Notes under the pieces: model-generated
Databases searched by the model: none
Told to the model about the DNA's origin: nothing
What the model saw: the letters and a program-made list of their open reading frames with translations, nothing else
Translations under genes and position numbers: made by a program
In this document: piece by piece, positions 4,994 to 57,074 of the stretch
Numbering within the stretch: position 1 is the stretch's first letter
Layout of the letters: each line of letters opens with the position of its first letter
IMG/VR virus record: IMGVR_UViG_3300010356_003454
Coordinates: 72,820-136,819 of that record
Source: a virus
Lineage: Duplodnaviria > Heunggongvirae > Uroviricota > Caudoviricetes
Reading direction: 5' to 3' (one strand)
Length of the DNA: 64,000 nucleotides

Positions 4994-5647
4994 ATGGCAA
5001 AATCAACTATTAAATTTACAAGAATTAGGGATGTTAAACTACCTTCCCGTGGTCATAAATTAGATGCAGGAATCGATTTCTTCGTTCCTAAATTCGATAA
5101 AGTATTCATTAAAGACCTTTTAATCAAGAATCCTAGTCTCAGGCCGGAAGAAGTGCGTGATGGATGCTCATGTACAACTCTTACAATTTCAGGAGGCCAG
5201 AGAGAAGCTGAGGTCAAGTTCGATCTTCATGATTATAATGATTCTATCGTGAGATTTGATGATATAGAAGGACTTAATTATTTTATCTTACCTCCACTCT
5301 CAAGAGTTAATATTCCATCCGGAATTTATTGTCAAATGCAGGAGGAGGGTAGAGCCCTTATAGCTGCTAATAAATCAGGAGTAGCTTCTAAGCATGGATT
5401 AATCTTTGGAGCTCAGGTGGTTGACTTTGAATATCAGGGAGAAATACACATCAATGTCATAAACACATCCTCGAAAGTAGTTCGTATCTATGAGGATCAG
5501 AAGCTCATTCAATTTGTTGAGACTCCGGTATTTACTTCTGAAATAGAAGAAGTAGAAACCCTCCAGGACTTATATAAAGGAGCGACTTCTCGTGCTGACG
5601 GTGGATTTGGCTCAACCGATAAGAAGCCAGAACAACTCAATTCATAA
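4994..5647 (+). CDS. dUTPase / dCTP deaminase family protein
   Basis: dUTPase-like motifs: LDAGID (motif 1), VDFEYQGEI (resembles GxxDxDYRGE motif 3), KLIQFV (resembles the RIAQ motif). Confidence 0.5.
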   Translation: MAKSTIKFTRIRDVKLPSRGHKLDAGIDFFVPKFDKVFIKDLLIKNPSLRPEEVRDGCSCTTLTISGGQREAEVKFDLHDYNDSIVRFDDIEGLNYFILPPLSRVNIPSGIYCQMQEEGRALIAANKSGVASKHGLIFGAQVVDFEYQGEIHINVINTSSKVVRIYEDQKLIQFVETPVFTSEIEEVETLQDLYKGATSRADGGFGSTDKKPEQLNS

Positions 5648-6477: not shown

Positions 6478-6501
6478 TTTAAATATACGTTAATTTTAAG
6501 G

Positions 6502-6536
6502 GGTTTATTCTTTTAGAGTAAACCTCTTTCTTTTTT
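6502..6536 (+). terminator. rho-independent terminator
   Basis: ggtttattct/agagtaaacc 10-bp stem (one G-U pair) followed by a T-rich tract. Confidence 0.4.
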
Positions 6537-6563: not shown

Positions 6564-8006
6564 ATGATTATTTCAATTGAGCAAAGACAGTCCAAATTAA
6601 TTGTTTCCCATATTAATAAAGAGGGAAATCTTGCTTATATGCAATTGAATATTCCTGTTTCCCATCAGTATTCCTATGTCTATTCAAAAAGTGCTGCAGG
6701 TGCTTTGCACGGAATTAAATCTTGGGATGGTAAACCTGTTAGAAAGGTTCCTGCTCCGTTTCTTTCCAGGCATCGTATTCAGGAATTTTTTATGGATGCG
6801 GGTGATCAATTAACGGCTCCTCTTTTCGAAAGAAATATGCCTAATCTATATTCTTGCGATATAGAGGTTGATGTAACTGATGATGGATTCGCAGAAGCTT
6901 CTGATGCTCGAAATAGAATTAATTCAATTGCTTGGTCTCATTATCCTGATGTAACAGTCTTTGGCCTGAAAGATTTATCAGGAGAACAATGTAACGAAGT
7001 CGAGACCGAAATAAACAATCACTTAAAACCTATTGGAAAGGAGTATAAGTTTGTTTATAAGAAGTATGAGAGCGAAAGCGATATGCTTTATGATTTTCTA
7101 TATAATTATGCTCGTCATGCTCCCCTAATTACTGGATGGCACTTTTGGAATTACGACTGGAGGTATATCTATAATAGGTGTAAGCGTCTTAATTTGGATA
7201 TTTCTTGGATGTCTCCGACTCGTCAGTGGTATAAGCATAAAATTATGGATCGGAACAACAGGGCTGATATATTTCTCCCCCAGCATAAGCTTATAGTTGA
7301 CTATATGGAGATTTATAAGAAGTGGGATAGGGTAATTGATCCAAAAGAGAATAACTCGTTAGACTTCGCTGCAGAGGCCGCATTAGGCATCACAAAAGTT
7401 AAGTATTCTGGAACATTTCAGGATCTCTATAGGGATTATCCTAAACATGTTTTCTACAACGCTATTGATACAATTCTTGTTGAGGAGATACACAATAAGC
7501 TAAAGACCATGGAGACATTCCTCGGTCTTGCTAATATCAATAGAGTTGAGGCAATGAATGCTTTTTCTCCTATTGCCATGCTCGAAGCAACGGCAACAAG
7601 ATATGCTTATAAAAGAGGCCTAGTTTTTCCAAAGGGCAATTTTGATAAAACTCGTGAGGATTATGAAGGGGCATTTGTATTTAAACCTACCCCCGATTTA
7701 TATGGTTGGGTGGCTGCTTTTGACTATGCTTCTCTTTATCCAAGTATTATGAGGCAGTTTAAGATTTCAATGGAAAATTTTGTGGGAAAGAATAAAGACT
7801 ATCAACCAAAACCTCATGAGATAAAATGTTCAAGCGGAGCTATTTTTGATGCTTCGGTAGAACCACTTCTTCCAGAGATACTTACTGATTACTATGCTCA
7901 GAGAAAGGAGGCTCAAATGATTGCCAAAAAAGCTGAGATTGAGGCTAATGAATTGAAAATGATCCTTAAAAAACGACTTAGTTCTGCACAAAAATCATTA
8001 TCTTAA
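6564..8006 (+). CDS. family B DNA polymerase, N-terminal part (3'-5' exonuclease + motif A only)
   Basis: Exo I is CDIEVDV, Exo II is WNYDWRYI and Exo III is YNAIDT. Pol motif A is FDYASLYPSIM, as in T4/RB69 gp43. The ORF ends about 95 aa after motif A and has no motif B (KxxxNSxYG) or motif C (YGDTDS). Confidence 0.75.
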   Translation: MIISIEQRQSKLIVSHINKEGNLAYMQLNIPVSHQYSYVYSKSAAGALHGIKSWDGKPVRKVPAPFLSRHRIQEFFMDAGDQLTAPLFERNMPNLYSCDIEVDVTDDGFAEASDARNRINSIAWSHYPDVTVFGLKDLSGEQCNEVETEINNHLKPIGKEYKFVYKKYESESDMLYDFLYNYARHAPLITGWHFWNYDWRYIYNRCKRLNLDISWMSPTRQWYKHKIMDRNNRADIFLPQHKLIVDYMEIYKKWDRVIDPKENNSLDFAAEAALGITKVKYSGTFQDLYRDYPKHVFYNAIDTILVEEIHNKLKTMETFLGLANINRVEAMNAFSPIAMLEATATRYAYKRGLVFPKGNFDKTREDYEGAFVFKPTPDLYGWVAAFDYASLYPSIMRQFKISMENFVGKNKDYQPKPHEIKCSSGAIFDASVEPLLPEILTDYYAQRKEAQMIAKKAEIEANELKMILKKRLSSAQKSLS

Positions 8007-8086
8007 ATCTTTGTTAAGAAATAATTAAGGGTCGTTAAAAGGGGATAAATAAGAGAGTAAAAATATAAAAATAATGTAAAATAAGT

Positions 8087-10684
8087 ATGGGTAAGTCATA
8101 TTCGGAGGCCCAATTGAGAGAGCAGGGCCTTCTCTATTTCAAAGGAGATATACTCGCAACGAATGTATGGATTAATAAATACGCACTAAAGACTAAAAGA
8201 GGAGATTACAAGGAATTAACGCCAGATGAAACAATAAAGAGATTAACAGCTGAAATAGAGAGAGCTGAAGCAAAATACCCAAACCCCCTTTCCCACAGAC
8301 AAATTTACGAAATGCTTAAGGGCTTCAAATATTTTATATTTGGAGGCTCTATTCTTTTTGGCCTGGGAAATGATGAGCAGGTTTCATCTTTAGGAAATTG
8401 TTTTTTTATTGATAATGGGTCAGATTCTTATGGAGGAATATTCCAGACAGAGGAGTCGATGGTTCAGCTGATGAAAAGAAGAGGTGGAGTCGGTATTACA
8501 TTAGAGCATTTAAGGCCCGAAACTTCTCTTGTCAATAATGCTGCTAAGACCTCTACAGGTGCAGTTTCATTTATGGATAGATTTTCTAATGGAACAAGAG
8601 AGGTTGCTCAAGACGGACGAAGAGGAGCTCTAATGATAACTATGCATGTGGATCATCCAGATATCATGAAATTTATCATGAAAAAAGATGATCTTACAAA
8701 AGTAACTGGAGCTAATATCTCTGTGAAGGTAACTGATAAATTCATGGAGGCTGTTGAAAGGGATGAAGACTATTATTTGTGCTGGCCTGTTAAGGATAAA
8801 AAACCAGAGATAAAAGAAAACCTTCCGTATAATTCTCTTCATATTCTTGAAGATGGATCCCATGTTAGGCGTGTTAGAGCGAAAGAGATATGGGATGCTA
8901 TAGTTAAGCAAGCTCATAAAAACGCTGAACCAGGTGTTCTATTCTGGGATAATGTCGTTAAGGAATCTCCTGCAGATTCTTATTCTCATTTAGGATTTAC
9001 AACGAAGGGAACTAATCCTTGTGGGGAAGTACCCCTATCCCCTTATGATTCATGTCGTTTGGGGTCTATTAATCTTTATCCTCTTGTTGATGATCCTTTT
9101 ACTCCAGATGCCCGGTTTAATTTTCAGAAATTAGCAAAACATGCCCGAATAGCTCAGAGATTTATGGATGATATTGTAGAGCTGGAAGAGGAAAAGGTGA
9201 TAAATATTATAGCTAAGATAAACAGCGATCCGGAGGATACGGAAATTAAAAGAAATGAATTAAGAACATGGGAAAGAGTCTTAGAAGTGTTGAGGAAGGG
9301 CCGAAGAACGGGGGTTGGCGAGCTAGGCTTAGGGGATGCGCTAGCTGCTCTGGGAATAAGGTTCGGAACGCCGGAAGCAACCAAACTGGCAGAGGAAATA
9401 CAAAAATGCATCGCCATTCACTCCTACAAGGAAAGCATTAATCTTGCTAAGGAGAGAGGAGCATTTCCAATTTGGAATCCTGATCTTGAATCTCCGAATC
9501 CATTTATCAGAAGAGTTATTGTTGATAATTTTGACAATAAAGAATATAAGGAATATGTTGATTCTGGCCGTAGAAATATAGCTAATATCAGTATTGCTCC
9601 GACCGGATCTCTTGCAATTCTTGGACAAACCACCTCTGGCATAGAACCTGTATTTAAAGTCTATTATCATAGAAGGAGAAAGGTTAATCCGGGGGAGAAA
9701 GATGTTAAAATTTCTCTGGTTGACCAAAATGGAGATTCATGGGAAGAATATAATGTTATCCATTATCCCTTTATTGATTGGTATATTCAACATCGTAAGG
9801 AAACATTTAAAGATTTAATTGAAAGGGGCGAGGAACTTCCAGAAGATTTATCATTTGAAGCAGTTTCCAAAGAATTAAAGGCTCTTCCTGTAGAAATATT
9901 GGACGAACTCGTTAAAGGCTCTCCCTGGGGTGGATCAGAATCCCACAATATCGATTATATCGAAAAGATAAAAATGCAAGGAGCTATTCAGAGATGGGTG
10001 GATCATTCTATTTCTGTAACTCATAATCTCCCAGCTGATATCTCTATTGATGAAGTTAATAAGATCTATTTCCAAGCGTGGAAAGCTGGTTGTAAGGGAC
10101 TTACTATTTATAGGGAAGGATCCAGAACGGGTGTTTTAATATCAAACAAGGAAAAAAAGGAGACTGAATTTAAGGAATCAACAGCCCCAAAAAGACCAGC
10201 TATATTAGAATCTGATTACTATGTTGCGAAGGCTAAAGGAAAGGAATTTGCTGTTATTGTAGGAAAATGGCCGGGAACAGAAAAACCATTTGAAGTCTTT
10301 GCCTTTGAAAATCCGCCAGCTAGCAAAAATACGAAAGGAAAGACCGTTAAAATTAAAAAGGGACATTATAAGTTCATTAATGGCGAATTTGAAATAGATA
10401 ATCTTCAGTTATCGGCCGAAAGGGTAGAGGAGAGAATGTTAACTCTGACAGCCTCTATGCTTTTGCGTCATGGTGCTCCAATTAAGCATGTAAATAATGT
10501 TATTCAAAAAATTGATGATAATATTTCATCATTTTCAACGGTAGTTCGAAGATATCTTTCTAGATATATTCCAGATGAAAAACTTGATGGGGAGGCATGT
10601 CCTCATTGCGGAGATAAATTAATAATGCAAGATGGATGTGTCAAATGTGTTAATCCCGAGTGCGGATATAGTAAGTGCGGATAA
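8087..10684 (+). CDS. nrdJ: class II (adenosylcobalamin-dependent) ribonucleotide reductase
   Basis: Active-site NPCGEV...CRLGSINL. Length 865 aa. C-terminal Zn ribbon CPHCG...CVKCVNPEC. Monomeric NrdJ-like architecture. Confidence 0.8.
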   Translation: MGKSYSEAQLREQGLLYFKGDILATNVWINKYALKTKRGDYKELTPDETIKRLTAEIERAEAKYPNPLSHRQIYEMLKGFKYFIFGGSILFGLGNDEQVSSLGNCFFIDNGSDSYGGIFQTEESMVQLMKRRGGVGITLEHLRPETSLVNNAAKTSTGAVSFMDRFSNGTREVAQDGRRGALMITMHVDHPDIMKFIMKKDDLTKVTGANISVKVTDKFMEAVERDEDYYLCWPVKDKKPEIKENLPYNSLHILEDGSHVRRVRAKEIWDAIVKQAHKNAEPGVLFWDNVVKESPADSYSHLGFTTKGTNPCGEVPLSPYDSCRLGSINLYPLVDDPFTPDARFNFQKLAKHARIAQRFMDDIVELEEEKVINIIAKINSDPEDTEIKRNELRTWERVLEVLRKGRRTGVGELGLGDALAALGIRFGTPEATKLAEEIQKCIAIHSYKESINLAKERGAFPIWNPDLESPNPFIRRVIVDNFDNKEYKEYVDSGRRNIANISIAPTGSLAILGQTTSGIEPVFKVYYHRRRKVNPGEKDVKISLVDQNGDSWEEYNVIHYPFIDWYIQHRKETFKDLIERGEELPEDLSFEAVSKELKALPVEILDELVKGSPWGGSESHNIDYIEKIKMQGAIQRWVDHSISVTHNLPADISIDEVNKIYFQAWKAGCKGLTIYREGSRTGVLISNKEKKETEFKESTAPKRPAILESDYYVAKAKGKEFAVIVGKWPGTEKPFEVFAFENPPASKNTKGKTVKIKKGHYKFINGEFEIDNLQLSAERVEERMLTLTASMLLRHGAPIKHVNNVIQKIDDNISSFSTVVRRYLSRYIPDEKLDGEACPHCGDKLIMQDGCVKCVNPECGYSKCG

Positions 10685-11192: not shown

Positions 11193-12068
11193 ATGAAAGA
11201 AGGAACCATTAGAAATATATTAGCTGAAGAGCTTTTTGGAACTAGAATTTGTGAATCTGTCGAAGATCAAGAAATTCTAGAAACATTTTATAGCGGTCTA
11301 AAACCTGTATTTGAGAAGTTCTTATGGGGAGAGCCAATATCGGTCGAAGAGCTACGTAAACTTCTCCGAAAGAGTATTGTAAATTTTGAATTTATTAAAC
11401 TTGATGGCGAAGTGAGACCTGCAAGAGGAACAACCATGCTTAAATATATTCCTAAAGAGGATCAGCCTAAAGGAATTCGTCCGTCATCTGATGCGGTAGC
11501 TACTTTCTTTGATATGGATAAGGAGGCTTGGAGAAGCGTATCTAAAAAATCCAAAGAGATAGTTCTTAAGAAAGATCAAGAAAAAGATCGTCCGATAGTA
11601 GTTGTAAAAGATAAGGAAGAGGGCCTTAAGAAAAAAGGTAAAGAGATCGAAAAAATTGGTCCTGAACCGGAAGATGAACTTAACGTGGGAGATATCAGAT
11701 ATTATCTAAACAGAAATAATAGAGATATTGTTATTCGTATAACTAGAATGGATGACGATGGATCAGTTTATGCAGAGACATTTAGAGAGAAAACTCCATT
11801 TAAAATACCGGCTAATAGGATCAGAAATATAGGTGAAAAATTAACTCCTGAGGAACTTCAGAAATTGCAAAAGCCAAGACCTATTATTCCTCCAACCCCG
11901 ATTGCTAAACCCAAACCAGTAGCTCCCGAAATGAAGCCTGTAACTCCTACAACCCCTGAAGGAGAAGAGGGAGAGGTTATAGAGCTTAAACCTATTGAGG
12001 ATGTAGAGACTAAGGAGCCTCCTGAAGAAGTTGAGGATAGAGAAGACGCTGAAGAACTTCTTAAATAA
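11193..12068 (+). CDS. hypothetical protein with Pro-rich / acidic C-terminus
   Basis: ORF. C-terminal PxxP-rich region followed by an acidic tail. Confidence 0.4.
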   Translation: MKEGTIRNILAEELFGTRICESVEDQEILETFYSGLKPVFEKFLWGEPISVEELRKLLRKSIVNFEFIKLDGEVRPARGTTMLKYIPKEDQPKGIRPSSDAVATFFDMDKEAWRSVSKKSKEIVLKKDQEKDRPIVVVKDKEEGLKKKGKEIEKIGPEPEDELNVGDIRYYLNRNNRDIVIRITRMDDDGSVYAETFREKTPFKIPANRIRNIGEKLTPEELQKLQKPRPIIPPTPIAKPKPVAPEMKPVTPTTPEGEEGEVIELKPIEDVETKEPPEEVEDREDAEELLK

Positions 12069-12108
12069 TCTTAAAAACTTATTCCTCTTATCTTTTTATA
12101 AAGATTAT

Positions 12109-13170
12109 ATGAAAGCTATGGATAGAAAATTTGACTTGGATGATATAGCTATCATCCCGACAATTGTTAGTGAAATTAGGAGTAGATCAGAATGTAAGAT
12201 TTCTAGATCTTTTGAGAATGAAATTATGGTACTACCTCTTATGGCTTCTCCTATGGATACCGTGGTTTGTGAGAAGAACTATGAGAGGTATATTCTTGAG
12301 GGAATAATTCCCTGTATACCGCGGGGTCAAAAAGTACCGAAATCTAAATCTGAATTTTATTTTAAATCATATGGATTAAGTGAAATAGAATATCAGCTAG
12401 AATATGAAGGAAAGGGCCCAGAAGATTTTTATAATTTTCCTAATATTCTTATAGATATTGCCAATGGCCATATGAAGAGATTGGTAGAGGTAGTTAAGGA
12501 GATAAAGGAATTTTATCCGCACATAAAGATTATGGTTGGAAATGTGGCTCATCCTCTTACCTATAAAAATTTGGCTATGGCAGGAGCAGACTATGTTAGG
12601 TGCTCGATAGGAACGGGGGCTGGCTGTACCACAGCGGCAAATGTGGCTATTAATTATCCTATTGGCAGTTTGATACATGAATGCGCAAAAATCAAAAAAG
12701 AGTGTAATTTGACAGCAAAAATAGTTGCTGATGGAGGAGCAAAAGATTATTCTGATATTATAAAGGCTTTGGCACTTGGAGCAGACTATGTTATGATGGG
12801 ATCTATTTTTAACAGAAGCATGGAGAGTGCAGGATTTAATTATCTTAAGACCCCATTTGGAAAGATTCGGATTAAAAATTATGATCTTGCAAGAGCTCTA
12901 TGGAAATGGGATTTCCCCATATATAAAAAGTATAGGGGGATGAGCACTAAGGCCGTTCAGCGAAGCTGGGGAAAGGCTCAGCTAGTTACAGCTGAGGGAA
13001 TTACAAAATATCAGAAAGTTGCTTATACTCTTAAACAGTGGACTGAAAATTTTAGGGATTATCTTCGTTCCAATATGAGTTATTCTGGAAGTAGAACACT
13101 AGAAGAATTTATCGGAGATGCTGAATGGGTATTTATAACAGAGAGGGCCCGGAAGCGCTTTGAGAAGTAG
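12109..13170 (+). CDS. GMP reductase / IMP dehydrogenase family protein
   Basis: N-terminal FDLDDIAIIP. Catalytic Cys loop CSIGTGAGCTT. VADGGAK...LALGADYVMMGS matches the IMPDH/GuaC TIM barrel. The ATG at 12109 is inside a longer tracked ORF. Confidence 0.55.
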   Translation: MKAMDRKFDLDDIAIIPTIVSEIRSRSECKISRSFENEIMVLPLMASPMDTVVCEKNYERYILEGIIPCIPRGQKVPKSKSEFYFKSYGLSEIEYQLEYEGKGPEDFYNFPNILIDIANGHMKRLVEVVKEIKEFYPHIKIMVGNVAHPLTYKNLAMAGADYVRCSIGTGAGCTTAANVAINYPIGSLIHECAKIKKECNLTAKIVADGGAKDYSDIIKALALGADYVMMGSIFNRSMESAGFNYLKTPFGKIRIKNYDLARALWKWDFPIYKKYRGMSTKAVQRSWGKAQLVTAEGITKYQKVAYTLKQWTENFRDYLRSNMSYSGSRTLEEFIGDAEWVFITERARKRFEK

Positions 13171-13819
13171 ATTTTTTATAAGGACCTCTTTTTATTCCTT
13201 TTCTACTTTTTGACATTTTTTCTCTTGTTTCGATAGACATTTTTTTACCTAACCAAGGTTTATTTTTAGCATTATTTTGGCTTATTTTCTTTTTATGCTC
13301 TTCCGATAATTTTTTGCCTTTAAAGTTTTTACTAATTTGTTTTTTATGTTCTTCTGATAGATGACTTCCTTTCATTGCATTCTCTATTTCGCCATTTAAG
13401 TATTTTTTCTTTAATGTTTCGGAAATCTTCTTCTTTGTTTCCTCTGATTTAGCAATGGATTTATTTCTAGATATGCCCCTTCCATTTTTACTAATAGCTT
13501 CCTTACTTTTTTCGGAATGGGAAAACGATCCTTTAACCCCTAATCCCCCGGTAGGGCTTATATTATATCCATTTGGCTGTAAGGTATTGAATTTTTTTAT
13601 ATATTTTTTTTGAGCATTAAAAGCCTCTTCTTTAGTTTCAAAGAGTTCTAATATAGTTTTTTTAAAATTTTTCTTACCGTATTTTTTCAATGCTCTCTTG
13701 AATAATGGCCTTCCACTTCCGAGATATGGATCTTCTTCTGGATTACAATCACAAGATCGATCCCCAACATATTGAAGACCATTTATTTTGTTAGTTGTAA
13801 TGTAGGTATAGTGGAACAT
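13133..13819 (-). CDS. GIY-YIG homing endonuclease
   Basis: N-terminal HYTYITTNKINGLQYVG (GIY-YIG). C-terminal NUMOD3-like repeats (SEEHKKKIS, SEETKKKISE). It is the only convincing minus-strand gene and converges on the preceding + gene with a 38-nt overlap. Confidence 0.7.
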   Translation of the reverse strand: MFHYTYITTNKINGLQYVGDRSCDCNPEEDPYLGSGRPLFKRALKKYGKKNFKKTILELFETKEEAFNAQKKYIKKFNTLQPNGYNISPTGGLGVKGSFSHSEKSKEAISKNGRGISRNKSIAKSEETKKKISETLKKKYLNGEIENAMKGSHLSEEHKKQISKNFKGKKLSEEHKKKISQNNAKNKPWLGKKMSIETREKMSKSRKGIKRGPYKKSTSQSASGPSLL

Positions 13820-16083: not shown

Positions 16084-17970
16084 ATGATGGATCCAGACTT
16101 TAGACTTTTAGAAGACAGATATTTAAAAGCGAAAATCGCTTATTATGAGGGCAACCCAATTATGTCTGATGCAGAATTTGATGCATTAGAGGCTCATCTT
16201 AAATCATTGGGTTCTAAAGCTCCTGAACAAGTTGGAGCAAAGAGAAAGGACTTCGATTTCTCCCATCCCACGAAAATGCTCTCTCTGGCTAAACTTCAGA
16301 CTGAAGCAACTGAGGATGGAACAGATTATAAAGAAGAAGATTTTCGTAAGTGGGTGAATAAGAATAAAGCTATTCTTGGGGTTCTTCCCGAATTGGAGGC
16401 TTCTCCAAAATTTGACGGAAATGCTATTAATATAATATATCAGGGAACAAAACTTCATAACATCCTTACAAGAGGCGACGGTCTTACAGGTAAGGATATC
16501 ACAAAGAGAATGGCTCAGCACGTTCCCGATGAGCTTCTCCTCCTCGGACTGGATGTTCGGGATACTGATACGATCGAGATACGCGCGGAAGTAGTAATAG
16601 ATGTCCCTCTCTTTAATGAAAAATATGCTTCTGAATTTGCTAATGCTCGTAATTATGTTGCGGGAGTTATTGGAAAGGATGATGCAGATGAGATTAAGGC
16701 TTCAGAATTAACCGTAATTCCTCTTCATTTTCTTGTTAATGGAAAACACGTCGCATGGTCTCATTTCAAAAGAAATCTTTTTTCTTGTCAGAATTGGAAT
16801 TCATCTTTTATTCCTGACAATTATGTCTACACTATTCAGTCATTTGAGAAATTGAGAAAAACTCTCAACTACCAGCTTGACGGTGTCGTTATATCATTTC
16901 CAGCTCACGTCCGTGAAACTCTTGGTGAAAATGACCATGACCCTGAATGGGCTATAGCAATTAAATTCGTTCCGGTTGAGACGATTACAGAAGTTGATGG
17001 AATCGAATGGAATGTCTCAAAAAAAGGAGAAATAATGCCTACCGTTCTATTATCACCGGTATTTCTGGATGGATCTACAGTTCGCAGGGCCTCCGGATAT
17101 AATGCAGGCTATATTACTAATAAAGCTATAGGTGTTGGCGCTAAAGTATCTCTGGCTAAGGCGGGGGATATAATTCCTGAGATTCAGAAGGTTATAGCAG
17201 AAACCACAGAAACTTTCGTTCTTCCTTGCCAATGTCCTGCATGCGGATCCAAACTCACTTTTGATGGTATTCACCTTATGTGCACTAATAATATGTGCGA
17301 AGGCAAGATTGCTAAGCAATTGGCATCGGCTATTTCAATTTTGGATGTTAAGGGCGTAGGTGAAAAAACTATCGAACCATTCGCTAAGAAATTTGGAGAT
17401 ATTTATCAGGTGATGAAATGGGTCCTTTCCCAGCCAAATGCTCTTGGTGAATTTGGATTTGAAATAGGATCTAAGTCTCATCAGAATTTTGTAAATGCTT
17501 TTAAAAATATCAGATCCCTTACTTATGAGCAGGTTATTCAAATGCTCGGATATGAAAATGTTGGAAAGAAGCTCTCCGTTCAGCTCGCACGCGAGCACGC
17601 GGGATTAGAATATAATTATATGCACCTCGAAAAGGCCCTCGTTGCTAAACTTCGCTCTCCTGAAGTAAGCGGATATATCAAAGAGGTGGTTAAGGGATTA
17701 GAAGATCTTGGGATTTCAATTGATCGTCCCAAAGGGGAAACAGGGAATGGAACCAGCGTAGGCGTTTGCCTAACTGGTTCCCCCAAGGATTTTGGCTATG
17801 CTACAAAAGCTGAATTCCTTGCTAAATTCCCTAATGTTAAAGAGGTATCACTTACAGATTCCTCATGTAAATATCTTGTTACTGATTCTTATCAGTCTAC
17901 AAGCAGCAAGATGAAAACTGCAGAGAAGAAGGGAATAAAAATATTAACTTATGGAGATTTTAAAATATGA
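16084..17970 (+). CDS. ligA: NAD-dependent DNA ligase
   Basis: Ia domain (YYEGNPIMSDAEFDALE). Adenylation Lys in KFDG. Zn finger CPACGSKLTFDGIHLMC. C-terminal HhH and BRCT-like region. Length 628 aa. Confidence 0.8.
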   Translation: MMDPDFRLLEDRYLKAKIAYYEGNPIMSDAEFDALEAHLKSLGSKAPEQVGAKRKDFDFSHPTKMLSLAKLQTEATEDGTDYKEEDFRKWVNKNKAILGVLPELEASPKFDGNAINIIYQGTKLHNILTRGDGLTGKDITKRMAQHVPDELLLLGLDVRDTDTIEIRAEVVIDVPLFNEKYASEFANARNYVAGVIGKDDADEIKASELTVIPLHFLVNGKHVAWSHFKRNLFSCQNWNSSFIPDNYVYTIQSFEKLRKTLNYQLDGVVISFPAHVRETLGENDHDPEWAIAIKFVPVETITEVDGIEWNVSKKGEIMPTVLLSPVFLDGSTVRRASGYNAGYITNKAIGVGAKVSLAKAGDIIPEIQKVIAETTETFVLPCQCPACGSKLTFDGIHLMCTNNMCEGKIAKQLASAISILDVKGVGEKTIEPFAKKFGDIYQVMKWVLSQPNALGEFGFEIGSKSHQNFVNAFKNIRSLTYEQVIQMLGYENVGKKLSVQLAREHAGLEYNYMHLEKALVAKLRSPEVSGYIKEVVKGLEDLGISIDRPKGETGNGTSVGVCLTGSPKDFGYATKAEFLAKFPNVKEVSLTDSSCKYLVTDSYQSTSSKMKTAEKKGIKILTYGDFKI

Positions 17971-23448: not shown

Positions 23449-23966
23449 GAGCTAAAACTGTAAATTTCCAGAGGGGATTAGATCCGAAGGAGGCCTTGGA
23501 AATAGGTAATGAAAATCTAAGGCAATTCCATAAAGATATGGATAATGGAAATTTTTTGGCTCCTCTTCATATTTTGATGGATGGGCTGGAAAGAGGATAT
23601 ATCTCGGATAAAGAAGCTGATGAGTTTATAATTGGAGCAGTCAGAACTAGTGCTCCCAGATATTGGGAATGGACTAAATGGTTTGAGGATACAAGAAATA
23701 TCTATTGGTCTGAATTTAATGAGTCTCTAAATATTAATTTTACGCTTCCCGATTTTAAGAGGATTAAAACATGGATAGGTAAAATAACAGAACATGATGG
23801 AGGTTATTGGTTTAAGATGAGAACTTCTTCCACTGATAAAAATGGAAATGGATATGGCATAGAGACGGAAAATGTTTTTTCGGATGATGATTATGCTTTT
23901 ACATCTAAATTTATCTTGAATCAAATTAATAGAGTATTTACAGAAACAGTTAGAAATATAGATTAA
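23445..23966 (+). CDS. MRAK/FERG-leader family protein
   Basis: Leader MRAKTVNFQRGLDPKEALEIGN. Confidence 0.55.
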   Translation: MRAKTVNFQRGLDPKEALEIGNENLRQFHKDMDNGNFLAPLHILMDGLERGYISDKEADEFIIGAVRTSAPRYWEWTKWFEDTRNIYWSEFNESLNINFTLPDFKRIKTWIGKITEHDGGYWFKMRTSSTDKNGNGYGIETENVFSDDDYAFTSKFILNQINRVFTETVRNID

Positions 23967-25183
23967 TGACTTTACCTAAACAATTAAATGATATTCTTGA
24001 TTTTCTTAGAGGACAAGACTGGATTCAGTCTCTGAATTCTATAGGGGATACTTATATGGTCGGAGGCTGTGTGAGGGATGCTTTCCGTGGCCAGAAGATT
24101 AAGGATATAGACCTTATTGTTGAAGGAACTACAATGGATCAGATCTTAGACGAATTGAGGCCTTATGGTAGAGTCGATCAGGTGGGCGAATCTTTTGCTG
24201 TAATTAAGTTTAGGCCTAAAGGTCATATTGGAGAAGATTATGATATTGCAGTTCCTAGAGTTGATAGAAAAATAGGATCTGGCCATAAGGGATTTGTTGT
24301 AGAGACTAAAGGAGTTAATCTTGTGGATGATTTGGAGAGAAGGGACTTTACCATAAATGCTATTGCCGTTAAAGTGGATAATGGAAGATTGGTAGATCCT
24401 TATTCTGGATTGGCGGATCTGAAAGCTGGAGTTCTTCGTGCGGTAGATGATATAGCATTTATTGAGGATCCTCTTAGAATTCTTAGAGGTATACAATTTG
24501 CGGCTCGCTTCGGATATAGGATCACGAATGGAACTATGAAATTAATGAGGGAAAATGCTCATTTAATTAAAGAGATTTCAGGAGAGAGAATATTTGAGGA
24601 ACTTATGAAGGTTCTGGATAAAGGAGGAGATACTCAGCTTGCTCTAGATCTTCTTCATCAGACTGATGTGGATGTAGCTCTATTTGATAAGAAGATGCTT
24701 AAATATGATCAGGGCTTTGAACATCTAGATCCCGCCTCTTTCTTCTATGTCTTGGGGCTCTTGGGAGATGTTAATCCTGCCGATTTCCTTAAAAAGAGGC
24801 TTAGGGGCGATAATAGACTTGAGAAGAATGTAAGAGTTCTCGATCGTATTTTTGAGATGCTTCCTCGAATGGTAGAGGACGAGGATCTAAAATACATGCT
24901 CTCTAAGGCCTTTACCGCTGCTCCTGAAGTTATGGATGCTGTAATTCTTCCTGATGAAGTCGATGAAATCGTTCTCCAGATGAGGACAATGAAAATTCCG
25001 ATGAACGAAGGAGATATAAAAATCGGAGGGGAGGATATTAAGAGAATAGGCCAGCTAAAAGAAGGACCTGAAATAGGATTCATCAAGGAGAAAATATTGA
25101 GGGATGCTCTAATGAATAGGTTTAATTGGAAAGACCGGGATAAGAGTTTAGAATATTTGCAGAATCTACTATATTCGAAATGA
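23966..25183 (+). CDS. cca: tRNA nucleotidyltransferase (CCA-adding enzyme) / poly(A) polymerase head-domain protein
   Basis: GGCVRDAFRGQKIKDIDLIVEG is the Pol-beta-like NTase head motif of CCA enzymes. Length 405 aa. Confidence 0.7.
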   Translation: MTLPKQLNDILDFLRGQDWIQSLNSIGDTYMVGGCVRDAFRGQKIKDIDLIVEGTTMDQILDELRPYGRVDQVGESFAVIKFRPKGHIGEDYDIAVPRVDRKIGSGHKGFVVETKGVNLVDDLERRDFTINAIAVKVDNGRLVDPYSGLADLKAGVLRAVDDIAFIEDPLRILRGIQFAARFGYRITNGTMKLMRENAHLIKEISGERIFEELMKVLDKGGDTQLALDLLHQTDVDVALFDKKMLKYDQGFEHLDPASFFYVLGLLGDVNPADFLKKRLRGDNRLEKNVRVLDRIFEMLPRMVEDEDLKYMLSKAFTAAPEVMDAVILPDEVDEIVLQMRTMKIPMNEGDIKIGGEDIKRIGQLKEGPEIGFIKEKILRDALMNRFNWKDRDKSLEYLQNLLYSK

Positions 25184-38157: not shown

Positions 38158-38187
38158 CCCAAACATCGTTGGTGTTTGGGAATTTTT
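38158..38187 (+). terminator. rho-independent terminator in a conserved module
   Basis: cccaaaca/tgtttggg stem followed by T-run. Preceded by AATTTTTTCTTAAATTTTAACG, which is identical to the sequence at 49742. Confidence 0.5.
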
Positions 38188-38220
38188 GTTTATATTTATA
38201 GTGTAATTAAACTTAGTGAG

Positions 38221-40626
38221 ATGAAAAAATTATATTTAGTGATCTACATTTACACAGATTACAGGAATTACAAAATTGGAAAAGCTGCTAGATATGCATC
38301 TTCACCCGAAGAAGCAGCAAAAATTCGTATTTCGGAACAAACTACAGCAGCTACTTATGGTAATTGGAAATTAGTAGATGTATTGGTGATTTCCAGAGAA
38401 GGCCTAGATCCTTTATTTGTAGAAGCATATATTCATAATCGGATACAGGAATTGGGATATGAAAGACTTCATCGTAATGTCCAGTTTTCAGAAAAAGATA
38501 TTAAAGAAGGCCTTTCAGAATGGTTTAATTTTAGAAAACTTAATGAATTTAAGGTAAAGCGTCTTATACGCGAAATTTTTTCTGAGATTAATCATGCATC
38601 AGGCCAGAAATTTTATATCCCAAGATTTTATCAAGCTCTGGTAAAGGCTATTACTTTAGATAAAATAGAATCTGGATTAATGGAATCGGATTCGATAACA
38701 ATAGCATTGGAGCTTGCTCCGAGATTTGGAAAAACCCTATGGGCATTAGATCTATTTAATGAGTTAAGATATTTAGGAATTAATGTTTTGATCCTCCCAA
38801 CTTTTGTATTATCCTCGACTTCTTCTTTTACTAAAGAGATTACAAGTTTTGGTGATTTCGAACATTTTTATCTTTTGGATTCATCGGATTCAGAATTTGA
38901 TAAAAAACTTAAAGAATCGAAGGAATCAGGAAAGATAATGGTTATTGGGGTTTCTATGCATATGTCAGAGGATTCTTTGAAAAAATATAAAAAATCAATG
39001 AGCATCATTAGCAAAGATAGGATTATGTCTATTGTCGATGAGGCTGATTTTGGGGCTCATACAGAATCAAGCCGGGAAGTTTTGAATGCGGTAGATTCAA
39101 AAATAACGCTTTTGATGACGGGTACTGCTATTGAAAGAGCTATCAAAGGGCTTGTATTTATCCAAAATAATATAATTATTTGGACTCAGACAGATATGCA
39201 AATGGTTAAAAAGGGAACTCATCCTATTCTTCAATATATTGGGGATGGGGACAAACAATTTTCCAACAGGGTTAATTCAGTTTTGAAAAAATATACAATA
39301 GAAGAAGCAAAAAAAAGCTGTGCTAATCTTCCAGAAATAGAAATGCTTAAATTAAATCTTTCAAATATTTCTATTTTGCAAGAAATGCAGGATATTGAAT
39401 TAAGAGGTAAATGGACAAAAATTCTTACTGATGTTAATCAGAGCAAATCTATTATAAAAACAGTCTATAAGGGCCTTTTCGATTTCCCGAATATGGAATT
39501 TGATAATCCCGATCTAAAGAATATGAGCAAAATTTATCTTCGGAAAAAATGCAGGTTAGGAGTTACTATGATTTTTGGAGGATTTCCAAACAAAAAAGAG
39601 CAAAAAGCTTTTGTAAAATTCCTTCAAACCATACTAGGTGATAATTTTGAGGTTTATGAAATAAATGGAGATGTAACTACAAATAAAAAAGCGGAAGAAA
39701 AAGCAAAAAGAATTATCGCCAAAAATAAATTAAATAGGGAAGAAGGAGTGGATAGACAGATAATCTTTGTTTCCAAGGATATGGCTTCTCGAAGTTTTTC
39801 AATTTCCGAAATTGATACTGTAATACTTATGTATGACAGGGGAATGATCAATTCAACCGCCCAGAAAATCTCAAGGGCATTTACTCCTGGTAATAACTTA
39901 TATGACGAAGAGAAATTGGTTTCACACGTCGTTAGTTTAAGCCTGGATGCATCAAGAGAACACTGTCCTATTGATCTTTACATAATTCAGGAGGCAGCTA
40001 GAATTGGGGAATATGATCCAAATGGATCTATAGAGGGTCCAATTAAGAACGTAGCTTCCTGCTATAATATCTTCCAGAATACAGATAATGGATTTCTCCC
40101 AATAGAAATGGATGACTATTCCCAATTCTTGATTGAAGGAGCAGGATCTGATTTATTAAGAATTGCTAGCTCAACAGTAGATGTATCAGATCTCGGATCC
40201 ATAATTCTTTCGATGGATCAGGAAATGATAGATTTTTTGGATCTTGCATCTCCTAATGGGTCTAATAAACAAAAATCTAAAGGCAGAACGGAGATATCTG
40301 TTAATGAGGTGAAGACCTATTATAATAATCATAGAGGTCCAAATGATGAAAAAATAAAAACATTGGAAGAAAAATTATCAGAAGTTCTCAGAGATATTAA
40401 CTATTGTGTGCCAGATTTAGTTATGCTTGATGATTATAGACATGATAATATTTCGGATATAATTGGAAATCTCTATAATATGCCTGAAATATACAAAGAT
40501 ATTGAAGAGGATTTAGGTTTTTCTATAGTCCTTGCAAAATATTTACTTCCATATCTTAATCATAGACTTCTTAATACAGCAATAGAAATTTTTATTAAGG
40601 AAGAGGATAAATTTTTCATTATATAA
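38221..40626 (+). CDS. T5orf172/GIY-YIG-like N-terminal domain fused to SF2 DEAD-type helicase
   Basis: N-terminal YLVIYIYTDYRNYKIGKA...EWF is T5orf172-like. Walker A is APRFGKT. Motif II is VDEADF. Motif III is LLMTGTA. Motif VI is QKISRAF. Confidence 0.55.
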   Translation: MKKLYLVIYIYTDYRNYKIGKAARYASSPEEAAKIRISEQTTAATYGNWKLVDVLVISREGLDPLFVEAYIHNRIQELGYERLHRNVQFSEKDIKEGLSEWFNFRKLNEFKVKRLIREIFSEINHASGQKFYIPRFYQALVKAITLDKIESGLMESDSITIALELAPRFGKTLWALDLFNELRYLGINVLILPTFVLSSTSSFTKEITSFGDFEHFYLLDSSDSEFDKKLKESKESGKIMVIGVSMHMSEDSLKKYKKSMSIISKDRIMSIVDEADFGAHTESSREVLNAVDSKITLLMTGTAIERAIKGLVFIQNNIIIWTQTDMQMVKKGTHPILQYIGDGDKQFSNRVNSVLKKYTIEEAKKSCANLPEIEMLKLNLSNISILQEMQDIELRGKWTKILTDVNQSKSIIKTVYKGLFDFPNMEFDNPDLKNMSKIYLRKKCRLGVTMIFGGFPNKKEQKAFVKFLQTILGDNFEVYEINGDVTTNKKAEEKAKRIIAKNKLNREEGVDRQIIFVSKDMASRSFSISEIDTVILMYDRGMINSTAQKISRAFTPGNNLYDEEKLVSHVVSLSLDASREHCPIDLYIIQEAARIGEYDPNGSIEGPIKNVASCYNIFQNTDNGFLPIEMDDYSQFLIEGAGSDLLRIASSTVDVSDLGSIILSMDQEMIDFLDLASPNGSNKQKSKGRTEISVNEVKTYYNNHRGPNDEKIKTLEEKLSEVLRDINYCVPDLVMLDDYRHDNISDIIGNLYNMPEIYKDIEEDLGFSIVLAKYLLPYLNHRLLNTAIEIFIKEEDKFFII

Positions 40627-40676: not shown

Positions 40677-41942
40677 GTGAGTAACTTTAATAAATATTGG
40701 ACTGCTAGGGGGAACTCAAAAAAAGCCGAGGTTTTTACCCCGTCTTTTTTAGTCAGAGAAATGCTTGATAAAATTCCTGCAGAAATTTGGAGGAGTTCAG
40801 AAACTATATTTTTAGATCCTTGCTTTGGATCCGGAACATTCATAAAATGCATCATTGAAAAGCTAAGGGAATATGGACATAGTGATGAGAATATTTCTAA
40901 AAGGATCTGGGGAGTAGAAATTAATAGAAAATGGTATAATAGGGTAAAACATTTCAGGATTGGCGAGTATAATATAAGAAACATCTATTGTGTAGATGCT
41001 CTAAATACAAATATTTTAGATGGTATGAAGTTTGATGTAGTATGTGGGAATCCGCCTTATCAGGGGAAAAAATTAGGGGGTGGAGCTGGATCTGGAAATG
41101 CTATATGGCATAAATTTGTAGTAAATGCTTTTAATGCTCTAAAGGAGAACGGATACCTTTGCTTAATTCATCCTATAGATTGGAGAACTAATCTTTCGCA
41201 GAAAAAGATTGAATCTGCTAGGAAAATTTTGATGACGAATCAAATAGAATATTTAAAATTAGCATCAGCCCCATTCCCTGGTATAGGAGCTTATGTTGAT
41301 TGGTATATTCTGAAAAAACGTGAGAAAAAAGAAAATACTTTAATAGATTTTCTGGATTGCCAAAAAAATGTTTTTTTAGATAATAAATTATTTCCTCTAT
41401 ATTCTTATAACAGCGATACTGTAAATTCAATAAAATCGAAAGTTTTAATGGATGCTACAAATAATCTAAATATGAGGAAACCATTTCACGGGTTAACTAT
41501 ATTAGATAGGTCTAAGCCAAAAGGAAAATATAAATTTGCTCATGGAACCGGATATACAAAAAATGAATGGAAATATTATGATTATCCGCATATTCATCAA
41601 TATCATAAAAAGGTTATAATGTCTTCCGTTAGGATACCTAGAGCTATTTATGATGATGGGAATATAGGGATCGGGGATCATGTTCATTATATTTTGGTTA
41701 ATAATAAGGAAGAGGGGGAATTTCTAACCTCTGTGATAAATAGCAAGCTTGGTATATTTCTGCAAAAGATTTTCGTTACTACCTTTTGGGATGGCGAATC
41801 CTCTCATTGGAATAATCCATATCCAATCTCTAAATTAAAAATAGACAATAGGAAATTCGAATCGGATATAGAGATCTATGATTATTTTGGATTAAGTAAG
41901 GAGGAGAGAGAATACATTGATAAAGAACTAAGAACCAAATAA
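40677..41942 (+). CDS. N6-adenine DNA methyltransferase (Eco57I/gamma-class-like)
   Basis: Motif I is LDPCFGSGTF. Motif IV is CGNPPYQG. GTG start. An in-frame TAA lies immediately upstream. Confidence 0.65.
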   Translation: MSNFNKYWTARGNSKKAEVFTPSFLVREMLDKIPAEIWRSSETIFLDPCFGSGTFIKCIIEKLREYGHSDENISKRIWGVEINRKWYNRVKHFRIGEYNIRNIYCVDALNTNILDGMKFDVVCGNPPYQGKKLGGGAGSGNAIWHKFVVNAFNALKENGYLCLIHPIDWRTNLSQKKIESARKILMTNQIEYLKLASAPFPGIGAYVDWYILKKREKKENTLIDFLDCQKNVFLDNKLFPLYSYNSDTVNSIKSKVLMDATNNLNMRKPFHGLTILDRSKPKGKYKFAHGTGYTKNEWKYYDYPHIHQYHKKVIMSSVRIPRAIYDDGNIGIGDHVHYILVNNKEEGEFLTSVINSKLGIFLQKIFVTTFWDGESSHWNNPYPISKLKIDNRKFESDIEIYDYFGLSKEEREYIDKELRTK

Positions 41943-44758: not shown

Positions 44759-45988
44759 ATGAGAGCTCGATTTGTACTTTACGAATTCGCTAAAAACAAA
44801 GATTCTAAATATTATGCTCCTGATTATCTTATACAGGAGCTTATGGATGCTGTTAACAAGTATGTTCCTCTCCATGAGATAGATCATATAGTTGAACCAG
44901 CTTCTGGCGACGGAGCGCTAATACCTTTTATTGATAAGATAGCTAATGCCTATAATATTGATACCAGCTATTATGATCTAAAACCAGATCCAGGCAATCC
45001 TCGTATTGAACAGCAAAACTTCTTAGACTATTCTCCAGAACCATATTTCAGTCCATCTAGGCTTGTACTCACAGGACCACCTTATGGGGAACCTGGAGCT
45101 ACAGCCAAACTATGGAAGCAGTTCGCTCAGAAGGCTTCAGAGGTGGCAGGATATGTCGCTTTTATCTCTCCGGTTACTTGGCTTGATGTGAAACATCCTG
45201 TTCCTCATCTAGAACTTATCTATCAGAAGGACATGGGGTGGGTTAAATTCAGGGGCAGCGAAGCTTTCGGCGGTGAAGACCATCCTGTTAAGACTGCTAT
45301 ACTTATCTATAAAACTATCAAAGAGCCACAAACTGAAGACTTTTCATTTATAGATAACGATTTCATTATTCAGGAGATCTATGGTCGTGATAACTTCAGG
45401 AATAGAAAATACGATTATTATATTCTCTCCTGGGGCCGTGATTCAGGCAGAGTTAATACCTCAGGAAGGTATCCTGATGGCCGACTATTTTCTAAGGCAA
45501 TTGGAATAAAGGTCTTGGATGAGGCTCGTAGGGATGATTTAGAAGCGTTTTTAGAGACTTTCGAACAGGACTATAAGGATAAGATCGCCAGATACTCAAT
45601 TACAACAGCTAATGTCTTAAGTGTGCCTCGTTTTAAGAGATTTCTCGGAAACGCTCTATATTCGGGGATGAATGAATCTATAGACTTCGAAAGAGAAGGG
45701 AATCCATACGAGAAATTACGTATCGGTCGTAAGGTAACAAGGCCTTATCCTCAAATGAAGCCGAAAGAATTTTTTCAATGGTATCAGTCTGAGGCCTTTC
45801 CATATTATGATTCCGATGAGTTCTCTTTTTCTAGCGTGCTTTCAGATCTTGTTAATGACGAGGAGTCTACAGATGAAGAACTTCGAGAGGTATGGACTGA
45901 AGAACTTGATGTTCCAGAAGAAGTTATAGATAAACTATTACCTATGCGGGGTTATTTCTTAGATTTCCGCTATATTCAGAACATATGA
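44759..45988 (+). CDS. MRAR-leader protein with methyltransferase-like fold (non-canonical GPPY) and C-terminal FERG module
   Basis: Leader MRARFVLYEF. Motif-I-like EPASGDGAL. TGPPYGE sits where NPPY would be. A C-terminal FEREGNPYEKLRIGR...RPYPQM...MRGYF module is paralogous to the 46607 C-terminus. Confidence 0.5.
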   Translation: MRARFVLYEFAKNKDSKYYAPDYLIQELMDAVNKYVPLHEIDHIVEPASGDGALIPFIDKIANAYNIDTSYYDLKPDPGNPRIEQQNFLDYSPEPYFSPSRLVLTGPPYGEPGATAKLWKQFAQKASEVAGYVAFISPVTWLDVKHPVPHLELIYQKDMGWVKFRGSEAFGGEDHPVKTAILIYKTIKEPQTEDFSFIDNDFIIQEIYGRDNFRNRKYDYYILSWGRDSGRVNTSGRYPDGRLFSKAIGIKVLDEARRDDLEAFLETFEQDYKDKIARYSITTANVLSVPRFKRFLGNALYSGMNESIDFEREGNPYEKLRIGRKVTRPYPQMKPKEFFQWYQSEAFPYYDSDEFSFSSVLSDLVNDEESTDEELREVWTEELDVPEEVIDKLLPMRGYFLDFRYIQNI

Positions 45989-55970: not shown

Positions 55971-57074
55971 ATGAATTACACACTTGATTTTATCAGAAAG
56001 AATAATCTCATTATTTTTGAAGCAATAATGGGATCGCATGCATACGGAACCAATATTGAGACTTCGGATAAGGATATCCGAGGGGTCTTCATTCAGCCTC
56101 TTGAAGACATTCTTAAGTATGGATATAAGGATCAGGTTGCTGATAAGACCAACGATATTGTCTTTTATGAACTGAAGAGATTTCTCGGACTGGTTAAGAC
56201 TAATAATCCTAACATCCTTGAGCTCCTTAATGCTCCTGCAGATTGTATTATCTATAAGAATTCTCTTTATGATCTTATCGCTCAGAATGCTCGTCATTTT
56301 GTTACGAAGAAGTGCCGCTGGACTTTCGCTGGTTATGCTATCGAGCAGATTAGGAAGGCAAGGGGATACAACAAGATGATGAACTGGGAAGAATCTAAGA
56401 TGACCCGAAAGGGTGTTCTGGATTTCTGCTACATTATTGAAGGGGGAGAGACCATACTCCTTGAGGAATGGATCAGAAGAACCGGTAGAAATACAGAAGG
56501 ATCCCTCTTCAGCGATCAGAGAATGCTTGCTCTTGCAAAGATCGATCACGCTCATGACATTTATGCAGTTTATGATCTTAGTAATTTCAAGGGTCTTTAT
56601 GGAGTTGTTGGAAAGGAGAATGCAAATGATGTTCAGCTTACCTCTATCCCTAAGGGACAAAAGGTCGTTGCTATCCTTACTTTCAATAAGGACGCATACT
56701 CAACTCATTGCAAGAATTATCTGGCTTACCAGACTTGGCTGAAGGAGAGGAATGAGGATCGTTTCAAGATGAACAAGGCTCATGGTAAGAACTATGACTC
56801 GAAGAATATGATGCATACCTTCCGTCTTCTTAACATGGCTCTTGAGATTGCAGCTACCGGAGAGATAAGAGTTCGTAGATCAGATGAAGAAAGAGAAAAG
56901 CTTCTTAAGATCCGTCATGGCGAATACGATTATGATCTTCTTATCGAAGAAGCAGAAGATATGATCAAGGATCTTGATCGTGCATTCGATCAGTCTTCTC
57001 TTCCTGATAAAATTCACGATAGCTTTATCGCTAATCTTGAATATGAAATCAGAGAAAAAAGATATGGTCTTTAA
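55971..57074 (+). CDS. Pol-beta-superfamily nucleotidyltransferase (PF10127-like 'predicted NTase')
   Basis: MGSHAYGTNIETSDKDIRGVF matches the G[SG]...D.D NTase-fold signature. Confidence 0.5.
   Translation: MNYTLDFIRKNNLIIFEAIMGSHAYGTNIETSDKDIRGVFIQPLEDILKYGYKDQVADKTNDIVFYELKRFLGLVKTNNPNILELLNAPADCIIYKNSLYDLIAQNARHFVTKKCRWTFAGYAIEQIRKARGYNKMMNWEESKMTRKGVLDFCYIIEGGETILLEEWIRRTGRNTEGSLFSDQRMLALAKIDHAHDIYAVYDLSNFKGLYGVVGKENANDVQLTSIPKGQKVVAILTFNKDAYSTHCKNYLAYQTWLKERNEDRFKMNKAHGKNYDSKNMMHTFRLLNMALEIAATGEIRVRRSDEEREKLLKIRHGEYDYDLLIEEAEDMIKDLDRAFDQSSLPDKIHDSFIANLEYEIREKRYGL

Follow-up and report, generated by a model that had tools for sequence, protein, structure and literature searches.

Splits at the fingertip of family-B DNA polymerases occur naturally in gp43 of the T4-like phages 133, 44RR, 31, 25 and 65, where the two cistrons lie between 2 bp and 3 kb apart (PMC3061061), and the 43A and 43B proteins of phage 25 co-purify and show polymerase activity (PMC2988022). 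Pfu polymerase cut at the fingertip behaves as the wild type, whether bicistronic or reconstituted, and its C-terminal fragment folds only with the N-terminal fragment (PMC3061061). In Methanothermobacter PolB the palm is split and the genes are 85 kb apart (PMC3061061). Amongst large phages, a study of Jug phages described polymerase genes split by intervening endonuclease sequences. Here we analyzed an open reading frame (ORF) of this kind in a 64,000-nucleotide stretch of tailed-phage DNA (IMG/VR record IMGVR_UViG_3300010356_003454, positions 72,820 to 136,819), referred to below as the window. The ORF lies at 6564-8006 on the plus strand and runs over 480 amino acids (aa) from an ATG start to a TAA stop. 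It very probably encodes the N-terminal, gp43A-type subunit of a split family-B polymerase of the T4 type, one that would assemble non-covalently with a gp43B-type partner encoded by an unlinked gene. The window derives from a huge phage that is a distant relative of the Lak megaphages.

The N-terminal half and its split site

A preliminary description, made from the letters of this DNA, had reported the motifs DIEV, NYDWRY, YNAID and DYASLYPS in a 480-aa ORF that ends between polymerase motifs A and B, ahead of an unrelated ribonucleotide reductase (RNR) gene. All of these were found where it had placed them, and the domain matches agreed. The exonuclease domain PF03104 matched the ORF with an E-value of 1.7e-9 (Pfam), and PF00136 matched with 3e-14, over profile positions 23-151 of 453 only. 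The PHROGs family phrog_2062, a 502-position family built of such N-terminal halves (N-halves), matched over profile positions 102-499 with an E-value of 1.4e-75. The best solved relative was RB69 gp43 (E 5e-34, chain residues 112-486). As judged from these alignments, the similarity of the ORF to family-B polymerases is far beyond chance.

The conservation of the N-half was assessed in a protein search over 5.8 billion proteins, which returned 574 clusters at E ≤ 1e-20. The best 120 of these 574 clusters, 63-94% identical to the ORF, were combined with the ORF itself into a family set of 121 sequences. Of these, 117 have a length of 475-485 aa, and the Exo I, II and III motifs, motif A and the QRK of the fingers are conserved in at least 98%, the last ~10 residues being variable. 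Exo I (DIEV, aa 99-102, 6858-6869) has D99, I100 and E101 invariant in 58 aligned sequences and conserved in at least 98% of the 121. Exo II (NYDWRY, aa 196-201, 7149-7166) has D198, W199 and Y201 invariant across the family, as are Y298 and D302 of Exo III (YNAID, aa 298-302, 7455-7469). Polymerase motif A (DYASLYPS, aa 387-394, 7722-7745), which carries a palm catalytic aspartate, aligns with DLTSLYPS of RB69, and D387, S390, L391, Y392 and P393 are invariant. Downstream of it, the first fingers helix (aa 435-479, 7866-8000) contains the conserved QRK at aa 446-448, which matches R482/K486 of RB69 gp43; R447 is invariant across the family. Because length, stop position and the active-site residues of a polymerase are kept across many independent assemblies, the N-half is under selection as a gene in its own right.

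The ORF ends 86 aa after motif A, at a TAA codon at 8004-8006. It is followed by an AT-rich spacer of 80 nt (8007-8086) with stops in all frames, in which the polymerase reading frame is not continued, and then by the RNR gene (8087-10684, plus strand). With 480 aa, a TAA stop and an RNR gene next, the ORF thus does not have the layout of a single-chain gp43 of ~900 aa. Read-through, a frameshift or a ribosome hop into a downstream polymerase frame was considered and rejected, as there is no polymerase-like sequence downstream. Stop-codon reassignment, as in code 15 of the Lak phages, was likewise rejected, the stop being TAA and all three stops being in use. Stops in the window are TAA in 64 cases, TGA in 19 and TAG in 8, which indicates the standard genetic code, and the TAA at 8004-8006 is therefore a real stop.

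The position of the break was located by alignment to solved polymerases. Residue 451 of the window protein aligns with K486 of RB69 and residue 474 with residue 506 of T4 gp43, so that the N-half ends near RB69 residue 510-515. In P0209, a C-terminal half (C-half) from the clade of the window, residue 47 aligns with RB69 residue 552, which puts the start of the C-half near residue 506-510. Since one half ends at ~510-515 and the other begins at ~506-510, the two cover the whole polymerase with no large gap or overlap. These alignments place the split at the fingertip, at about residue 510 of RB69 gp43, between the first fingers helix and motif B.

Structure prediction agreed with this placement. 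An AlphaFold2 model of the N-half, built from a 58-sequence alignment, had a mean pLDDT of 80 and showed aa 435-479 as one continuous helix of 45 residues, with low confidence at aa 322-336. In a Foldseek search RB69 gp43 was the top fold match, with a TM-score normalised to the query of 0.66-0.69.

The partner half in relatives and in the window

The preliminary description had proposed separate N- and C-terminal cistrons, as in T4-like phages with a split gene 43, and this proposal was supported by the conservation described above and by relatives that carry both halves. In the phage genome collection the best matches to the ORF came from the Lak megaphages of Prevotella (39% identity) and from the huge phages LR745206 and LR756500-LR756504 (29-36%). 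The N-half ORF has 472 aa in Lak-A2 and LR756500 and stops at the same alignment position as in the window. This end position is shared by LR756504, LR745206, LR756501 and nine IMG/VR or NCBI contigs, and also by two isolated phages, Chryseobacterium phage MA9V-1 and Acinetobacter phage PhT2. In MA9V-1 two genes 2.2 kb apart are annotated as 'DNA polymerase II' and 'DNA polymerase family B'. In PhT2 the ORF is annotated as 'gp43A split DNA polymerase', with the 43B gene 2.1 kb downstream, and its end falls in the same alignment column as that of the window ORF, at a similar distance past the QRK. The N-halves of 17 other lineages stop ~25-35 aa past the QRK. The stop codon itself varies by lineage and can be TAA, TGA or TAG; the Lak phages use genetic code 15, in which the stop of the Lak-A2 N-half is valid because it is a TAA (PMC6784885).

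Both halves were located in Lak-A2, LR756500, LR756501, LR756502, LR756504 and LR745206. Each complete huge-phage genome examined had one N-half match and one stand-alone C-half of ~400-470 aa, and no single-chain full-length polB was found in these genomes. The C-halves begin ~35-45 residues before motif B and include motif C and the thumb. In Lak-A2 the N-half (122,980-124,467, minus strand) and the C-half (345,595-347,593, plus strand) are 221 kb apart. The N-half is on the plus strand and the C-half on the minus strand in LR756504 (281 kb apart), LR756502 (132 kb) and LR745206 (101 kb), and the orientation is the reverse in LR756501, where the halves are 618 kb apart on the linear record. 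In LR756500 both halves are on the minus strand and the C-half lies ~10 kb downstream, with a homing-endonuclease-like ORF, an intein-bearing RNR gene and other genes between the two. Distant metagenomic relatives (L054, L037, L025, L021 and L022) have intermediate gaps of 0.85-5 kb. Stand-alone C-halves formed 1213 clusters, and the best 120 of these 1213 are 370-425 aa long and match PF00136 only. One contig, IMGVR_UViG_3300009711_000055 (17,088 bp), has two inverted copies of an N-half (L162, 10853-12671; L164, 4418-6236, reversed), which probably reflect an inverted-duplicate assembly artefact.

Within the own clade of the window, three contigs, one from IMG/VR (L013), one from NCBI (L110; GCA_028717785.1, contig JAQUND010000001.1) and one from a Logan assembly (L112), are collinear with the window over the genes for the dUTPase, the N-half, RNR, the WYL_2 protein, the IMPDH-like protein and the ligase. 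None of the three has a C-half within 10 kb of the N-half. The NCBI contig (198,935 bp) belongs to a metagenome-assembled genome (MAG) labelled 'Candidatus Nanoarchaeia archaeon', and its N-half and RNR are 72% and 70% identical to those of the window.

An earlier scan of IMG/VR with a broad C-half profile had been dominated by other clades and returned no contig shared with N-halves. The C-half of the clade was located by calibrating the identities of N- and C-halves against each other in genomes where both are known, in which C-halves are ~5-8 points more conserved than N-halves. The C-half group with the expected distances consisted of P0209 and its relatives; IMG/VR was scanned with P0209 and then with profiles. 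Two contigs with both halves were found. IMGVR_UViG_3300035698_018106 (322,902 bp) has an N-half running from 113,271 to 111,841 and a C-half from 81,698 to 80,535 on the same strand, 30.1 kb apart; its N-half is 65% identical to that of the window and the flanks are collinear with the window. IMGVR_UViG_3300044580_000214 (259,840 bp) has an N-half at 139,452-140,897, 69% identical to that of the window, and a C-half at 180,678-181,862, also on the same strand and 39.8 kb apart. Both C-halves are intact, with 391 to ~395 aa, the motifs KIFINSxYG and YNDTDS and a C-terminal ...SLF. In two further clade contigs, of 316 kb and 405 kb, there was no C-half among the matches listed, nor with query-specific peptides, a result that is uninformative on absence.

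The C-half profile was also used to scan GTDB genomes, where the only match was on a contig of a 'Wujia sp.' MAG (JAZSEO010000052.1, 292,826 bp), which carries a stand-alone C-half. The same scan did not return the 'Nanoarchaeia' contig bearing the 72%-identical N-half. Both look like huge-phage contigs that were binned into cellular MAGs.

In the window itself the C-half was searched for in several ways, and the earlier statement that no ORF of the 64 kb carries motif B or C proved correct. Regular expressions for motifs B and C had no match in any of the six frames of the whole window. With tblastn, neither six C-halves from relatives nor five C-halves of the own clade matched the window at E < 0.1, and a clade-specific C-half hidden Markov model gave a best E-value of only 0.22, compared with 4e-81 at a positive-control locus. 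As no C-half lies within 6.5 kb upstream or 56 kb downstream of the N-half, the halves are not adjacent cistrons here, which is a feature of gene arrangement and not of the protein family. The source genome is probably several hundred kb in size, and the window covers only part of it. A comparison of the window ORFs with the flanks of the clade C-half loci gave no shared neighbours; the position of the partner can therefore not be derived from synteny.

Assembly, origin and alternative explanations

In the proposed two-subunit enzyme, the N-half would supply the N-terminal domain, the 3'-5' proofreading exonuclease, the initial portion of the palm with motif A and the first long fingers helix. 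The partner, presumably encoded by a separate gene outside the window (~390-400 aa in the clade), would supply the second fingers helix with motif B (KxxxNSxYG), the remaining palm with motif C (DTDS), the thumb and the C-terminal '...SLF', a probable clamp-binding tail. The halves would associate non-covalently, with the two fingers helices packing into an antiparallel hairpin and the palm sheet closing across the interface, to give an enzyme equivalent to single-chain gp43. From the analogy with gp43A/B of phage 25 and with split Pfu, we infer that the two halves physically assemble and are active.

As to the origin of this arrangement, mobile DNA such as a homing endonuclease gene may have inserted at the fingertip, after which the inserted region would have grown and the genome rearranged until the halves were unlinked genes. 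This route of fission followed by dispersal is suggested by the homing-endonuclease-like ORFs directly 3' of the N-half in Lak-A2 and LR756500, and by gaps between halves that range from less than 1 kb to hundreds of kb. No such ORF follows the N-half in the window. In IMG/VR contigs of other clades (L033, L040, L041, L044 and L042) the RNR gene is directly upstream of the C-half. Since RNR adjoins the C-half on its 5' side in those contigs and, in the window and LR756500, the N-half on its 3' side, the ancestral order may have been N-half, RNR and C-half.

Several observations weigh against a two-subunit polymerase with an unlinked partner. The partner gene was not seen in the 6.5 kb upstream and 56 kb downstream of the N-half, and in the two clade contigs it is 30-40 kb downstream. 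Additionally, the genes that flank the C-half in the 323-kb clade contig have no homologues in the window. Together with the lack of a C-half in the 56 kb downstream, this points to a different gene arrangement in the source genome, where the partner may also, formally, have been lost. Lastly, the AlphaFold2 model has low confidence at aa 366-392, reaching the start of motif A, which may only reflect the missing partner.

Amongst the other explanations, the unlinked halves could have become independent modules, so that the N-half has no cognate C-half here or has several partners that set the composition, timing or fidelity of the polymerase. We regard this as unlikely. In a weaker form of the idea, the dispersal itself may be selected, for example because it lets phages with very large genomes control the amounts or the timing of the subunits.

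Very unlikely, in our view, is the truncated paralog that the preliminary description had offered as its second option, in which the C-half was lost and the N-half acts as a stand-alone proofreading exonuclease, on its own or with another polymerase such as a split minimal Pol III alpha-like enzyme. The lack of a C-half in the 64 kb fits such a loss, clade relatives having theirs 30-40 kb downstream, and an additional split Pol III-like enzyme is reported in the group 2.2 jumbo phages, including the Lak phages (Iyer et al., PMC7824862). However, residues that an exonuclease would not need, namely D387 and SLYP of motif A and R447 of the fingers, are invariant in the family. All complete relatives carry a single C-half each and lack a full-length polB, and the window is only a part of the genome. 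On these grounds the option was rejected.

A covalent rejoining of the halves after expression, by a trans-splicing split intein or by RNA trans-splicing, is highly improbable. Genes of this family do often carry inteins. The C-halves of Lak-A2 (L005, 2872-5023) and LR756500 (L008, 8199-4787, minus strand) are interrupted by an intein exactly at motif C (DTD|S...HN|S), which under the standard code is split into separate ORFs, with a 575-aa endonuclease-like ORF between them in LR756500. This layout resembles a 'fractured gene', with a split intein and a free-standing endonuclease, and if it is real, the polymerases of Lak-A2 and LR756500 are encoded in three pieces; the fragmentation in Lak may simply reflect code 15. 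Inteins are also present in the RNR genes of relatives: the orthologue in the Logan contig (L112, 11584-15549) has 1321 aa with Intein_splicing and HNH_3 domains, and that of LR756500 (L008, 16537-12363) is broken up by an insert resembling an intein, with a separate endonuclease ORF. At the junction of the two halves, however, no intein parts were found, which makes rejoining unlikely. The N-half ends ~10 variable residues past the fingers helix with no intein N-fragment and no Pfam Hint or Intein match, and the clade C-halves open directly in the region of the second fingers helix, ~45 residues before motif B, without the block F/G signature (...HN). Furthermore, the known polymerases split at the fingertip work without splicing (PMC3061061).

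A sequencing or assembly artefact (a frameshift, a chimeric join or a premature stop in a contiguous polB), for which nothing but the unusual gene length speaks, can be dismissed, as the stop position is conserved across the family, being shared by 120 independent public clusters and by curated complete genomes, a complete and intact RNR gene follows in conserved synteny, and no frame past the stop has polymerase-like sequence.

Gene neighbourhood, significance and comparison with known systems

The RNR gene beside the N-half encodes 865 aa (PF02867, E 3e-94), is free of inteins and has a C-terminal CxxC...CxxC zinc ribbon. The order of N-half and then RNR is kept in the three collinear contigs L013, L110 and L112 and in the huge-phage genome LR756500. 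Just upstream of the N-half gene, at 6498-6528 on the plus strand, is a terminator-like hairpin with a 14-bp stem and a T run, and a search for a terminator-like site 3' of the gene found none. The N-half and RNR may thus be co-transcribed.

The window forms a block of genes for DNA and nucleotide metabolism. Upstream of the N-half is a dUTPase (4994-5647), and downstream of RNR follow the WYL_2 protein (11193-12068), the IMPDH/GMP-reductase-like protein (12031-13170), an NAD-dependent ligase (16084-17970), a CCA-adding enzyme (23966-25183), a helicase-like ORF (38176-40626), two methyltransferases (40677-41942 and 44759-45988), an RlaP-like nucleotidyltransferase (55971-57074), a clamp loader (57776-58729), a 5'-3' exonuclease (59603-60757) and an SPFH/flotillin-like protein (61835-63433). 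Nearly all ORFs of at least 120 aa in positions 1-64000 are on the plus strand, the GC skew is positive in all 2-kb bins, and the G+C content is 29-41%. No tRNA genes were found in the window.

The only sizeable minus-strand gene in its part of the window, at 13133-13819, encodes a GIY-YIG-like homing endonuclease of 228 aa with the N-terminal sequence 'YITTNKINGLQYVG' and NUMOD3 repeats (Pfam E 2e-8). Its neighbours are the IMPDH-like gene on one side and the next conserved gene on the other. As these two are only ~70 nt apart in the collinear IMG/VR contig L013, the endonuclease gene looks like a recent insertion specific to this genome.

With regard to novelty, T4-like phages already provide biochemically tested examples of this protein type and this split site, and what appears to be new is the occurrence of the halves as unlinked genes across a large clade of huge phages. 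No description of unlinked polymerase halves in huge phages was found in the literature, of which coverage was partial, so that this absence is no proof; the polymerase goes unmentioned in the main texts of the Lak paper and of the 'Clades of huge phages' paper. A wholly new mechanism is not implied. In T4-type polymerases the fingertip is a place where breaks recur and are tolerated, and a large environmental clade of huge phages took the fission further than any described T4-like phage. Two essential halves that are now unlinked genes must still be co-expressed and find each other.

These findings also have practical consequences. Annotation pipelines, and people reading raw sequence, will call such genes truncated or pseudogenes, or will name one of them 'DNA polymerase' and miss that the other half lies elsewhere. 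Phylogenies of PolB, checks of genome completeness and the binning of hosts and viruses for huge phages need both halves to be paired, and at least two public MAG contigs with these genes are labelled as cellular organisms.

Among the described systems closest to this one is gp43A/gp43B of Aeromonas phages 25, 31, 44RR and 65 and Acinetobacter phages 133 and PhT2, which has the same fingertip split and the same gene content in each half. In those phages the cistrons are adjacent, whereas the partner of the window N-half would be more than 6.5 kb upstream or more than 56 kb downstream, and gp43A of PhT2 is only ~29% identical to it. The closest named relatives, at 29-39% identity, are Lak-A1, Lak-A2, Lak-B and Lak-C together with LR745206 and LR756500-LR756504, whose GenBank records are unannotated. 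They share with the clade of the window the split position, the stand-alone halves and the unlinked loci, and LR756500 also has the order of dUTPase, N-half and RNR seen in the window. These phages nevertheless form different deep branches, and the Lak phages differ from the window, with its standard code, in using code 15.

Further afield, PolB1 and PolB2 of Methanothermobacter thermautotrophicus are likewise two polypeptides from unlinked genes (PMC3061061). Their split is ~83 residues further towards the C-terminus, in the palm, and theirs is an archaeal enzyme rather than a T4-type one, whereas the split in the window is in the fingers. The engineered split Pfu (Hansen et al. 2011) is cut at the same site as the window protein and has wild-type kinetics, but it is a laboratory construct of an archaeal enzyme expressed from a bicistronic clone. 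The PolB of Nanoarchaeum and that of Pseudomonas phage MIJ3 are also encoded in separate ORFs, but these are rejoined by split inteins at other sites.

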